From: Candidatus Buchananbacteria bacterium
Lineage (GTDB): Bacteria > Patescibacteriota > Patescibacteriia > 2-01-FULL-39-33
Length of the DNA: 64,000 nt
Assembly: GCA_903888345.1 (NCBI GenBank)
Contig: CAISTG010000034.1
Span: 6,823 to 70,822 of the forward strand
Direction of reading: 5' to 3'
Below the pieces are notes generated by a model that worked only from the letters and a program-made list of their open reading frames with translations, ran no database searches and had not been told where the DNA came from. Positions 52,548 to 54,553 of the stretch are shown piece after piece; position 1 is the first letter of the stretch; every line of letters starts with the position of its first letter. The position numbers and the translations under genes were made by a program.

Positions 52548-52560
52548 TTCATTAGTATTA

Positions 52561-52728
52561 CCCGTTCCCAGGTGCGACCATTTGAAAATATTGTGCTGAT
52601 TTTATGCGAGAACGACTCAAAAATTATCGCAAGCGATGGCGTCAGATAATTTTTAGGAGTGAAGCATAAAATTCAGCCATGATTTTCAACCGGTCGCGAT
52701 TCTTGCTCCACTTCTTCTAAAGAAGTGG
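52561..52728. repeat. Copy A of a ~170-nt structured repeat (between map stop and ruvX start)
   Basis: About 85% identical to copy B; closing helix GGTGCGACC...GGTCGCGAT; terminal hairpin CCACTTCTTctaaAGAAGTGG. Confidence 0.75.
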
Positions 52729-52740
52729 AAAGATAAATTA

Positions 52741-53511
52741 TTATTTCGTTAAAATCTTAAAACCATCGTCAGTCACTGCTACCGTATGTTCAAAATGCGC
52801 CGACAAGGATTCGTCAGCCGTGACAATCGTCCAACCATCGTCGAGCGTATCAACCTCCCAGCCACCAGCATTAACCATCGGTTCGATCGCAATTACCATA
52901 CCAACCTCTAAGGTCAAATCGCGAGTATCATAAGCTGGCCAATAATTAGGAACCTGTGGATCTTCATGCGCCGCAAAACCAACACCATGACCACACAATT
53001 GCCGCACCACCGTGAAACCATTCTTTTCGACGACTGACTGAATGGCTTTACCGATATCTGATAATTTGTTACCTGGTTTTACCTTTTTAATGCCAGCGCC
53101 AAGCGCTTCTTGAGTGACTGACATTAATTTCTTGGCCGCCGGAGAAATTTTTCCCACGGCAACCGTCCGAGCCATGTCAGTAAATAATCCTTTATACTTT
53201 AAACCACAATCCAAACCAACAATATCACCAGCTTCTAATTTTCTATCAAAGGTTGGTATACCATGAACCACTTCATCATTAACCGAAACACAAAGCGCGG
53301 CCGGATAAACGCTCTCGGCCCAAGCCGCTTCATAATTCTTAAAACTACCCTCAGCCCCAGCCGCCTCAATTAACTTTTCGGCATAATCATTAAGCTCACC
53401 GGTAGTAATCCCCGGCTTAACCTTTTCGATGACTAAATCCATAATCTTCGACAGGATCTTCCCGCCCTCAGCAATGGTCTTTATTTGTTCTTTAGTTTTA
53501 TATTTAATCAT
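52741..53511 (-). CDS. map: Methionine aminopeptidase type I
   Basis: 256 aa; metal ligands in the conserved D...D...H...E...E pita-bread fold. Confidence 0.9.
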   Translation of the reverse strand: MIKYKTKEQIKTIAEGGKILSKIMDLVIEKVKPGITTGELNDYAEKLIEAAGAEGSFKNYEAAWAESVYPAALCVSVNDEVVHGIPTFDRKLEAGDIVGLDCGLKYKGLFTDMARTVAVGKISPAAKKLMSVTQEALGAGIKKVKPGNKLSDIGKAIQSVVEKNGFTVVRQLCGHGVGFAAHEDPQVPNYWPAYDTRDLTLEVGMVIAIEPMVNAGGWEVDTLDDGWTIVTADESLSAHFEHTVAVTDDGFKILTK

Positions 53512-53601
53512 AAGGTTTACCCTATGGAATGGTGTAATATTATTCCTATAGGGTTATTATAATCTATTCTATAGTTTATTTCCACCTCTTTAGACTTAAT
53601 T

Positions 53602-53773
53602 CCCGCTCCCGCTCCCAGGTGCGACCGTATGAAAATATTGTGCCAATTTTTAGTGGGAACGACTCGAAAATTATCGCAAGCGACAGCGTCAGATAATTTT
53701 CAGGAGTGAAGCTAAAAATTTGGCCATGATTTTCATCAGGTCGCGATTCTTGGTTACTTCTTCTAAAGAAGTG
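53602..53773. repeat. Copy B of the ~170-nt structured repeat (upstream of map)
   Basis: cccgctcccgctcccaggtgcgaccgtatgaaaatattgtgcc...ggtcgcgattcttggttacttcttctaaagaagtgac aligns colinearly with copy A. Confidence 0.75.
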
Positions 53774-54028
53774 ACAAAAGGATATTTCTTGCTCTTGTCA
53801 CTTTTTTCTAGAAAAAAGTAACCAAAAAAGTCGCGACGGCATAAAACATGGCCAAATTTTAAACTTCATTCACTAAACCAAAAACGCTGTCGCTGTTTTG
53901 GTTTGCCCTAACGGGCCGTTCATTCCCGTTTAAAATTGGCACAAGTTTTATTCATGTCGCAAGACGGGGACGGGAACGAAAAAAGTGTCTAAATTTAAAC
54001 AAAATAAATAATATTGTGGATAAACTAC

Positions 54029-54057
54029 TTGACAAAATATAATAGCCGTGCTATACT
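54029..54057 (+). promoter_or_regulatory. Sigma70 promoter (TTGACA-17-TATACT) with perfect DnaA-box-like TGTGGATAA ending 5 nt upstream
   Basis: tgtggataaactacTTGACAaaatataatagccgtgcTATACT; same arrangement as the promoter at 23875. Confidence 0.6.
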
Positions 54058-54163: not shown

Positions 54164-54553
54164 ATGGCACCGAAGAACCAGAAGAGCGACAGCAAGGACG
54201 GCAAGGGCAAGGGCGAAGCGAAGCGCAGCGTTTTCGATGGAAACGCACCGCGCGAAAGCAAGTGCCTCACCCCCAAACCGGCGTACAGCCTGGAGAGCGT
54301 GATGCGCGAACTGCGGCGGCGGAAGAACGTTGCCCAGGCCGTCGTCCCGGTCCCCAAGAGCGACCGGACCCTTACAGTCATCTTTCACACACCCAAGGCT
54401 TTGGGCATCCGGATGCTCGGCGGCCTCGACTATCTCGCCAAGGCCCACGGCTACGGTTCGCTCCTGATCAGCCAGGAGGAGTTCAATGACCTGGTCAAGG
54501 CCAAGAAGATCAAGCCGTTCGTCGCGTTGAAGGATGCGACGGCCGCCGACTAA
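54164..54553 (+). CDS. GC-rich small basic protein of unknown function (129 aa, Lys-rich disordered N-terminus)
   Basis: Strong SD AAGGAGA 8 nt upstream of ATG; about 60% GC; own promoter and terminator. Confidence 0.55.
   Translation: MAPKNQKSDSKDGKGKGEAKRSVFDGNAPRESKCLTPKPAYSLESVMRELRRRKNVAQAVVPVPKSDRTLTVIFHTPKALGIRMLGGLDYLAKAHGYGSLLISQEEFNDLVKAKKIKPFVALKDATAAD

Follow-up and report, generated by a model that had tools for sequence, protein, structure and literature searches.

A Dispersed Family of Structured Repeats in Patescibacteria with a Putative Triple Helix near the 3' End

Introduction

Triple helices of the ENE and MALAT1 type block 3'-to-5' exonucleases in eukaryotes, as REP hairpins do in enterobacteria, and the triple helix of MALAT1 comprises about 10 triples. 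Some repeats of the REP/BIME, ERIC/IRU, Correia, RUP and BOX types make the mRNA upstream of them more stable or serve as sites of processing or termination. Long major-groove RNA triplexes that guard 3' ends have so far been regarded as an invention of eukaryotes and viruses. The prokaryotic triplexes covered in a 2026 review are confined to riboswitches and group II introns (PMC13541005).

The element described here adds a structured, mobile-looking repeat to the Patescibacteria, the non-coding RNA repertoire of which is almost unexplored; in the literature on Patescibacteria we found no paper describing such an element. It occurs in three copies (A, B and C) in the window, i.e., the whole stretch of 64,000 nt that was analysed.

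The putative triple helix resembles those of ENE, MALAT1, MEN-beta and PAN in being a series of U.A-U triples broken up by C+.G-C, in which two U-rich strands surround one A-rich strand close to the 3' end; the number of triples would be comparable (5–12 here), and the proposed role, blocking of 3' exonucleases, is the same. An ENE has two stems and, between them, a U-rich internal loop that grips a remote poly(A) or A-rich tail, whereas the strands of the element are contiguous and would be arranged like a paper-clip. Having a different architecture, the element is ENE-like in its proposed working but is not an ENE, and its host is a bacterium, whereas triplexes of the ENE/MALAT1 type belong to eukaryotes and viruses.

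With the REP/BIME, ERIC/IRU, Correia, RUP and BOX repeats, the element has in common that it is multi-copy, folded and about 100–200 nt long, that it is found just after genes in either orientation, and that it varies among strains. All these repeats, however, are essentially imperfect palindromes, whereas the element is far more elaborate: its fold is strand-specific, with an asymmetry of wobble pairs, its internal loops are invariant, and it has a three-way junction in some copies and a putative triple-helix domain. Terminal inverted repeats with target duplications were not seen for it. It is also reminiscent of the orphan classes of structured ncRNA that comparative genomics has brought to light, such as raiA, OLE, ROOL and HEARO (lineage restriction, strong covariation and conserved loops), from which it differs in matching no Rfam 15 model and in a copy number and positional turnover much higher than in most of them.

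Results

Three Copies of the Element around map

A structured element of about 170 nt on both sides of map had been reported in a preliminary description of this DNA. The duplication is real and colinear: copies A and B are 85–87% identical overall (87% between 52561-52705 and 53608-53752 in a repeat search; 84.9% in a global comparison), they contain an identical 18-nt hairpin (52710-52727 and 53756-53773, repeat search), and the long-range closing helix and the terminal hairpin ascribed to them are present in both. That description had overlooked a third copy as well as the mirror relation of the linker to the purine arm in the 3' hairpin (see below). The third copy, C, is diverged, lies at about 53797-53978 on the minus strand, convergent with B, and was recovered by repeat search and three-way alignment; neither mismatch-tolerant searches nor the covariance model found copies beyond A, B and C in the window. 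Along the minus strand, secY and adk come first; an orphan G+C-rich ORF, encoded on the plus strand, follows, and after it come C, B, map, A, ruvX and recO. Copy A occupies the whole spacer between map and ruvX, antisense to both genes, and copy B is oriented divergently from map. The features of the locus are as follows (scores in bits are those of the covariance model):

52561..52728, plus strand: copy A, type 1 apex, 167 bits
52561-52573, plus strand: C-rich short repeats at the 5' end of copy A
52574-52579 and 52692-52697, plus strand: closing helix P1 of copy A (GCGACC / GGTCGC)
between the P1 arms, plus strand: long hairpin P2-P3 of copy A with its apex
52700-52704, plus strand: putative third-strand (Hoogsteen) tract of copy A, UUCUU
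52708-52728, plus strand: 3' hairpin of copy A, CCACUUCUU-CUA-AAGAAGUGG
53602..53774, plus strand: copy B, type 1 apex, 158 bits
53600-53619, plus strand: (UUCCCG)-type repeats of copy B
53621-53626 and 53739-53744, plus strand: closing helix P1 of copy B
53747-53751, plus strand: putative third-strand tract of copy B, UUCUU
53754-53774, plus strand: 3' hairpin of copy B, UUACUUCUU-CUA-AAGAAGUGA
53797..53978, minus strand: copy C, type 2 apex with three-way junction, 154.8 bits
53960-53956 and 53837-53833, minus strand: closing helix P1 of copy C
53830-53824, minus strand: putative third-strand tract of copy C, CUUUUUU
53822-53797, minus strand: 3' hairpin of copy C, GUUACUUUUUU-CUAG-AAAAAAGUGAC
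53771..53807: hairpin common to B and C, GUGACAAAAG..CUCUUGUCAC, terminator-like by reading
54008..54035, minus strand: promoter-like site TTGTCA-16-TATTAT (10/12 match), about 45 nt upstream of the closing helix of C

Copy A is predicted to fold into a hairpin of about 130 nt followed by the 3' hairpin (-69.1 kcal/mol; z = -7.65 relative to dinucleotide shuffles). After the hairpin common to B and C comes UUUUUU on the plus strand and UUCUUU on the minus strand; the hairpin overlaps the basal clamp of the putative triplex hairpins of both copies. It was not flagged by a simple terminator scan, its loop being about 11 nt by reading (the limit of the scan is 8 nt). The region of the promoter-like site upstream of C also holds the divergent promoter of the orphan ORF (54164-54553). 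This ORF was considered as the gene of a partner protein and rejected, because Pfam gave no match, 5.8 billion proteins contained no homolog, and nothing related to it is found beside other copies.

A Dispersed Family in Patescibacteria

The window, the locus and a type 2 copy were scanned with Rfam 15, both at the gathering thresholds and at E values up to 10, and no family matched the element. The matches returned by these scans were tRNAs and spurious plant miRNA matches, the latter due to the palindrome between B and C.

We took a 25-nt pattern from the best-conserved part of the element and scanned a set of genomes with one representative per species; apart from one chance site, its matches were eight loci in MAGs of Patescibacteria (Ca. 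Buchananbacteria and relatives). A looser pattern gave 20 further true loci in metagenomes. The true homologs in the exact-pattern scans were restricted to Patescibacteria contigs, and viral, phage and plasmid collections yielded chance matches or none. With the covariance model (R1), true copies scored 65–185 bits and reverse strands about 30 bits or less. Altogether, the fetched loci contain 34 copies (decayed ones included), mostly from Ca. Buchananbacteria, and several contigs carry two or three of them (three being the maximum per locus). The suggestion, made at the outset among others, of a short repeat family has thereby been borne out: A, B and C belong to a dispersed family not described before, which is specific to Patescibacteria and in which conservation concerns the fold of a single strand, most likely of RNA.

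The length of the element is about 165–190 nt (typically about 175 nt), and two types can be distinguished by the apex. In type 1 (copies A and B) the apex is a single hairpin (...CGCAAGC-loop-GCGUCAG...); in type 2 (copy C) it is a three-way junction formed by a GNNA-capped hairpin and a variable hairpin. Both types coexist in one genome, and both subfamilies are common to several genomes. Copy A is as near to the copy at L016 (84.4%) as it is to B, and the nearest relative of C is the copy at L002 (78.7%). Sublineage-specific changes are common to copies at different sites (e.g., L015 and L034).

Fold of the Hairpin Body and Assignment of the Strand

The element starts with short degenerate repeats (UUCCCG-like in the window, YAUUYG-like in other genomes), for which no covarying partner was found elsewhere in the element. 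They are followed by the closing helix (GCGACC/GGUCGC) and a long irregular hairpin, in which the helical sequence UUGUGC / GCCAUG is invariant and the purine-rich internal loops (GRGAAYGA / GARUGAAG, containing tandem GA) are conserved; the pairs that flank the internal loops covary (AC/GU to AU/AU, CU/AG to GC/GC). RNAalifold, applied to 12 sequences, found compensatory changes at 14 of the 31 pairs. For the covariation test, a model-based alignment of 28 sequences was used in which 33 pairs were written out, and the closing helix, absent from the model, was added. Pairing was observed in 93.1% of the cells (81.4% in shuffles), 18 pairs showed two-sided changes, and the covariation score was 0.373 compared to 0.150 in shuffles (reached by none of the 500 shuffles; slid controls gave at most 0.076). 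These values uphold the initial view of the element as structured. Many dispersed copies with target-site duplications (a simple mobile repeat), or a lack of covariation in the helices, had been named as observations against the proposal; dispersed copies were indeed found, but target-site duplications were not seen in the inspected flanks and the helices covary strongly, so that the element is not a simple palindromic repeat.

Read in the orientation of A and B, G-U pairs are more numerous than A-C mismatches (27 versus 7). The strand that folds is therefore the plus strand in A and B, which places these two copies antisense to ruvX and map, and the minus strand in C. Judged by the covariation, the fold is real and strand-specific, and the invariant helix together with the conserved loops and their covarying flanks is, on sequence grounds, the signature of a specific three-dimensional fold or of a binding site, not of a plain palindrome. 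Covariation alone does not separate RNA from single-stranded DNA; we infer that the folded molecule is RNA, because the tolerance of wobble pairs, the GNNA loops, the tandem GA motifs and the sense copies inside operons favour it.

The assignment of the strand bears directly on the earlier proposals that the element is a cis-regulatory leader of ruvX and map (a riboswitch or a leader-peptide attenuator) or a 6S-like RNA. On the locus map, A and B are placed just upstream of ruvX and map, and the element has about the size of 6S RNA, but the folded strand is antisense to both genes and the members of the family adjoin unrelated genes in both orientations, mostly after stop codons. The mini-ORFs on which the attenuator was based do exist in A and B, but they are not conserved across the family, in which the frames shift (4 to 41 codons on the minus strand, with MAKF and a stop codon in copy C, and 2 to 24 codons on the plus strand). 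There is no expression platform, as the 3' hairpin is not followed by a U tract; a central bubble is absent (only small internal loops are present), three copies lie within 1.4 kb, and no riboswitch, T-box or 6S model of Rfam matched even at E = 10. These proposals are rejected, a leader or a 6S-like RNA being, in our view, very improbable. A guide RNA of the TnpB/IscB omega type and a T-box were likewise rejected, since no gene of a transposon nuclease lies beside any copy and Rfam gave no match.

A Putative Triple Helix in the 3' Domain

The 3' domain has a constant order: the tract of the putative third strand (the linker), 1–4 nt, a clamp of 4–5 bp, the Watson-Crick pyrimidine tract, a loop (CUA or CUAG), the purine tract, and the clamp again. 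The 3' hairpin has a pyrimidine-rich 5' arm and a purine-rich 3' arm. The U/C linker matches the purine arm in parallel (U opposite A, C opposite G) and is not its Watson-Crick complement; in other words, it is a mirror copy of the 5' arm of the hairpin. Examples are listed below, with run lengths for the asymmetric tracts:

Copies A and B: linker UUCUU, purine arm AAGAA
Copy C: linker CUUUUUU, purine arm GAAAAAA
L031: linker CUCUUUCUUUU, purine arm GAGAAAGAAAA, Watson-Crick arm CUUUUCUUUCUC; run lengths (1,3,4)
L033 and L002: linker CUUUUUCUUUU, purine arm GAAAAAGAAAA; run lengths (5,4)
L035: linker UUUUUCUUU, purine arm AAAAAGAAA; run lengths (5,4 versus 6,3, approximate)
L047: linker U6-C-U5, purine arm A6-G-A5; run lengths (6,5), read by eye
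L043: linkers C-U6-C and C-U4, purine arms G-A6-G and G-A4

The strength of this match was evaluated on 16 distinct 3' domains, which were curated by hand because an automatic hairpin finder over-extended the stems. In each domain we determined the longest parallel U.A/C.G run that the linker forms with the purine arm of the same copy; these lengths add up to 124. When the linkers were permuted among the hairpins, the sum was 95.3 +/- 4.2, and 124 was reached in 0 of 20000 permutations; when the letters of the linkers were shuffled, it was 69.4 +/- 4.2, and 124 was reached in 0 of 5000 shuffles. The tract and the purine arm vary jointly across 20 distinct versions. From L033 to L031, a triple is cleanly swapped from U.A-U to C.G-C in a coordinated way, and between copy C of the window (U6/U6/A6) and strain L038 (U5/U5/A5) the three strands are shortened together from six to five. 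In a blind scan for mutual information, column 205 (linker) was linked to column 240 (purine arm) with a value of 0.81.

In all asymmetric tracts, the U runs of the linker follow the order of the A runs of the purine strand, read 5' to 3', which is the reverse of the Watson-Crick arm. Most of the purine tracts show near symmetry, so that only about five asymmetric versions bear on the parallel orientation, and L033, L002 and L031 among them are related. These patterns point to an intramolecular pyrimidine-motif triple helix (U.A-U and C+.G-C) of 5–12 triples above the 4–5-bp clamp, in which the pyrimidine strand would run parallel to the purine strand of the duplex, with isosteric covariation. 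The mirror pyrimidine tract would also be compatible with H-DNA.

Other readings of the 3' domain were rejected. An alternative Watson-Crick arm (a direct repeat) is contradicted by the mirror order in the asymmetric tracts, and pairing of the linker with the A-rich tail, which RNAfold predicts for some copies, is not conserved, as the tails vary without compensation. An intrinsic terminator does not fit, as the U tract lies 5' of the hairpin and an A-rich stretch comes after it, on both strands. Canonical terminators are used elsewhere in the genome. Among the copies, only B and C have a separate hairpin with a T run after them, which they share (53771-53807) and which is terminator-like by reading.

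The reading we favour, with a confidence somewhat short of even, is that the element is a stable structured RNA or RNA stabiliser with an exonuclease-resistant triplex end, belonging to a dispersed repeat family. It would be transcribed by read-through from the upstream gene and in some copies from a promoter of its own; the triple helix would block 3'-to-5' exonucleases, a stable structured RNA would accumulate, and in sense copies the upstream mRNA would be protected, while the hairpin body could be the scaffold that binds a protein or RNA partner. The block of exonucleases and the accumulation are suggested by analogy with the ENE/MALAT1 and REP stabilisers (PMC13541005). A wider claim, which is possible though more doubtful, is that CPR bacteria carry a multi-copy, possibly self-propagating structured RNA, the 3' end of which is sealed by an intramolecular triplex of MALAT1 length, and that this RNA arose independently and is the first prokaryotic counterpart of the triplex stability elements of eukaryotes and viruses. 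If true, the principle of end protection by triplexes would be extended to prokaryotes, the three-strand covariation across 20 versions would provide a compact, naturally varied model for the rules of triplex formation, and the element could supply a portable RNA-stabilising module. To a specialist, the triple helix is the most surprising part.

Genomic Position of the Copies

A stop codon is found at a distance of up to 160 nt in 27 of the 34 copies. In 15 copies the 5' end comes after a co-oriented gene (typically 20–35 nt from its stop codon), and in 15 a convergent gene borders on the 3' end (typically at 0–10 nt). About ten copies, like A between map and ruvX, lie in antisense orientation and take up exactly the spacer that separates two co-directional genes. 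Around half of all copies are antisense within co-directional gene arrays, and in these the folded strand may remain entirely untranscribed. The neighbours are unrelated housekeeping genes (pheS, tyrS, valS, cysS, fusA, rpsG, dnaK, trxB, rsmA, ychF and map); a search for a recurrent neighbouring protein family revealed none beyond the synteny of related genomes, and aaRS genes adjoin copies at 3 independent sites only. A single gene flanked by two direct antisense copies was observed at three independent loci (A/map/B in the window, L003, and L043 with pheS), and pairs of copies are also convergent (B/C) or divergent (L011).

Some of these positions would suit trans-acting small regulatory RNAs, with a conserved scaffold, a stabilising 3' end and a variable single-stranded 5' tail as the seed, in which the UCCC/CUCCC repeats of the window tails would pair with G-rich Shine-Dalgarno regions. 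Copies B and C lie outside any operon and have a common terminator-like hairpin after them, C is preceded by the 10/12 promoter-like site, the 5' tails differ among copies while the scaffold is conserved, and three UCCC-type motifs are present in the window tails. However, there is no general promoter signal: promoter-like sites upstream of the copies are not enriched (8.39 versus 8.10 +/- 1.0 in shuffles), and no conserved promoter at a fixed distance was found. Many copies are wedged 5–50 nt from a divergent start codon, the tails of other genomes consist of A/U-rich YAUUYG repeats with no obvious target logic, and the tail covaries with no other part of the element. Small regulatory RNAs of this kind therefore seem improbable, if less so than a leader.

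Turnover and Mobility

A membrane protein of 144 aa is encoded ahead of pheS, and through its homologs this orthologous site was traced in ten further contigs (the relatives compared have 56–84% protein identity). The element is present in sense orientation in L035 and L002 and in antisense orientation in L043, and the site is empty in L041, L045, L047, L050, L051, L052 and L055. The empty sites have a canonical terminator followed by the pheS promoter, whereas in the occupied sites the element replaces the terminator hairpin. As expected of a mobile repeat, the copies are dispersed, occur in either orientation and are present or absent at orthologous sites; the element is located directly behind genes, in either orientation, and is gained and lost rapidly. 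That orthologous sites are occupied only here and there is more suggestive of a selfish repeat than of a host function.

The main rival to a stable RNA is accordingly a selfish, non-autonomous mobile repeat (MITE-, REP- or PATE-like) without host function, which we regard as a serious but, on the whole, unlikely explanation. The strand-specific fold, as a single-stranded DNA or RNA intermediate, would serve the spread of the element by an enzyme encoded elsewhere in the genome, terminator regions would be targeted or replaced, and effects at the RNA level would be by-products. Such a repeat would account for several copies per genome in equal orientations (15 sense and 15 antisense to the adjacent gene), for the presence, absence or inversion of the element at one orthologous site, for the local clusters and the pairs around a single gene, for the changes common to different sites of a sublineage, for the end of synteny between two strains exactly at the B/C junction (see below) and for the missing enrichment of upstream promoters. 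On the other hand, neither target-site duplications nor terminal inverted-repeat boundaries were seen in the inspected flanks, no transposase, reverse transcriptase or TnpB-like gene adjoins any copy, and the element is missing from the viral, phage and plasmid collections. A strand bias of the IS200/IS605 type was considered and not seen, the orientation relative to GC skew (8 against 14) showing no strict bias. The three-way junction, the GNNA loops, the invariant loops and the putative triplex are much more complex than the hairpins that known transposases recognise, and the existence of two subfamilies common to several genomes likewise counts against a purely selfish repeat. The favoured reading of a stable RNA and that of a selfish repeat are not mutually exclusive.

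The turnover is also visible at the locus itself. Strain L038 encodes an identical Map protein and is 98% identical to the window over A, map and B; in place of C, the orphan ORF and adk, it carries trxB and G+C-rich palindromes, so that synteny breaks exactly at the B/C junction. The element marks a rearrangement hotspot in the conserved secY-adk-map region, and in the B copy of L038 a helix is damaged.

Sequences at the borders of the structured element

Directly 5' of its closing helix, the structured element carries two to six short degenerate tandem repeats, TTCCCG-like in the window's genome and YATTYG-like in other genomes, the number of which varies from copy to copy. They were found in the 5' flanks of other copies and at three sites in the window:

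53600-53619, copy B
52561-52573, copy A
53961-53978, minus strand, copy C

A covarying partner for these repeats was looked for and none was found. Where a copy is antisense, the gene downstream of it has the reverse complement of the repeats as its 5' UTR. Where the convergent copies B and C meet (53766-53807), the GUGA basal clamps of their triplex hairpins double as the first bases of the terminator-like hairpin they share, so either structure, fully formed, would weaken the other.

A diverged relative with a weak match to the covariance model (30 bits) was detected on another contig:

L047 719-889, minus strand, long hairpin plan kept (AAGAAUUUAGGC... / GCCUAAAUUCUU), closing helix GGAGAU/AUCUCC, triple-helix domain absent

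Genes next to the element

At three independent loci, two direct copies of the element flank one gene, each running antisense to it:

window 52561-53774, map
L003 3051-4726, gene of a 393-aa membrane protein
L043 10444-11884, pheS

Read-through of the first copy would produce an antisense RNA of the bracketed gene, capped at each end by a structured module.

Immediately upstream of the map start codon, within the predicted 5' UTR, lies a palindrome:

53520-53553, 34-nt imperfect palindrome (CCCTATGGAAT...ATTCCTATAGGG)

Between adk and copy C, an orphan ORF lies within an island of 62% G+C (genome, 39%):

54164-54553, plus strand, ORF of 129 aa
54029-54057, its promoter-like site (11/12 match, TG extension)

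Its ribosome-binding site is AAGGAGA. A Pfam search of the ORF gave no match, and a comparison with 5.8 billion proteins brought up no homolog but the ORF itself. The related strain L038, whose Map is identical, lacks the ORF.

The intergenic spaces of the element also house a second repeat family of G+C-rich palindromes (GTCATTCCGGGC...GCCCGGAATGAC / CTGGATTCCCGC...GCGGGAATGAC), found at the following loci:

L038 880-1030
L041 10470-10640
L050 1240-1350
L003 (about 3250), L016, L032 and L006, downstream of element copies
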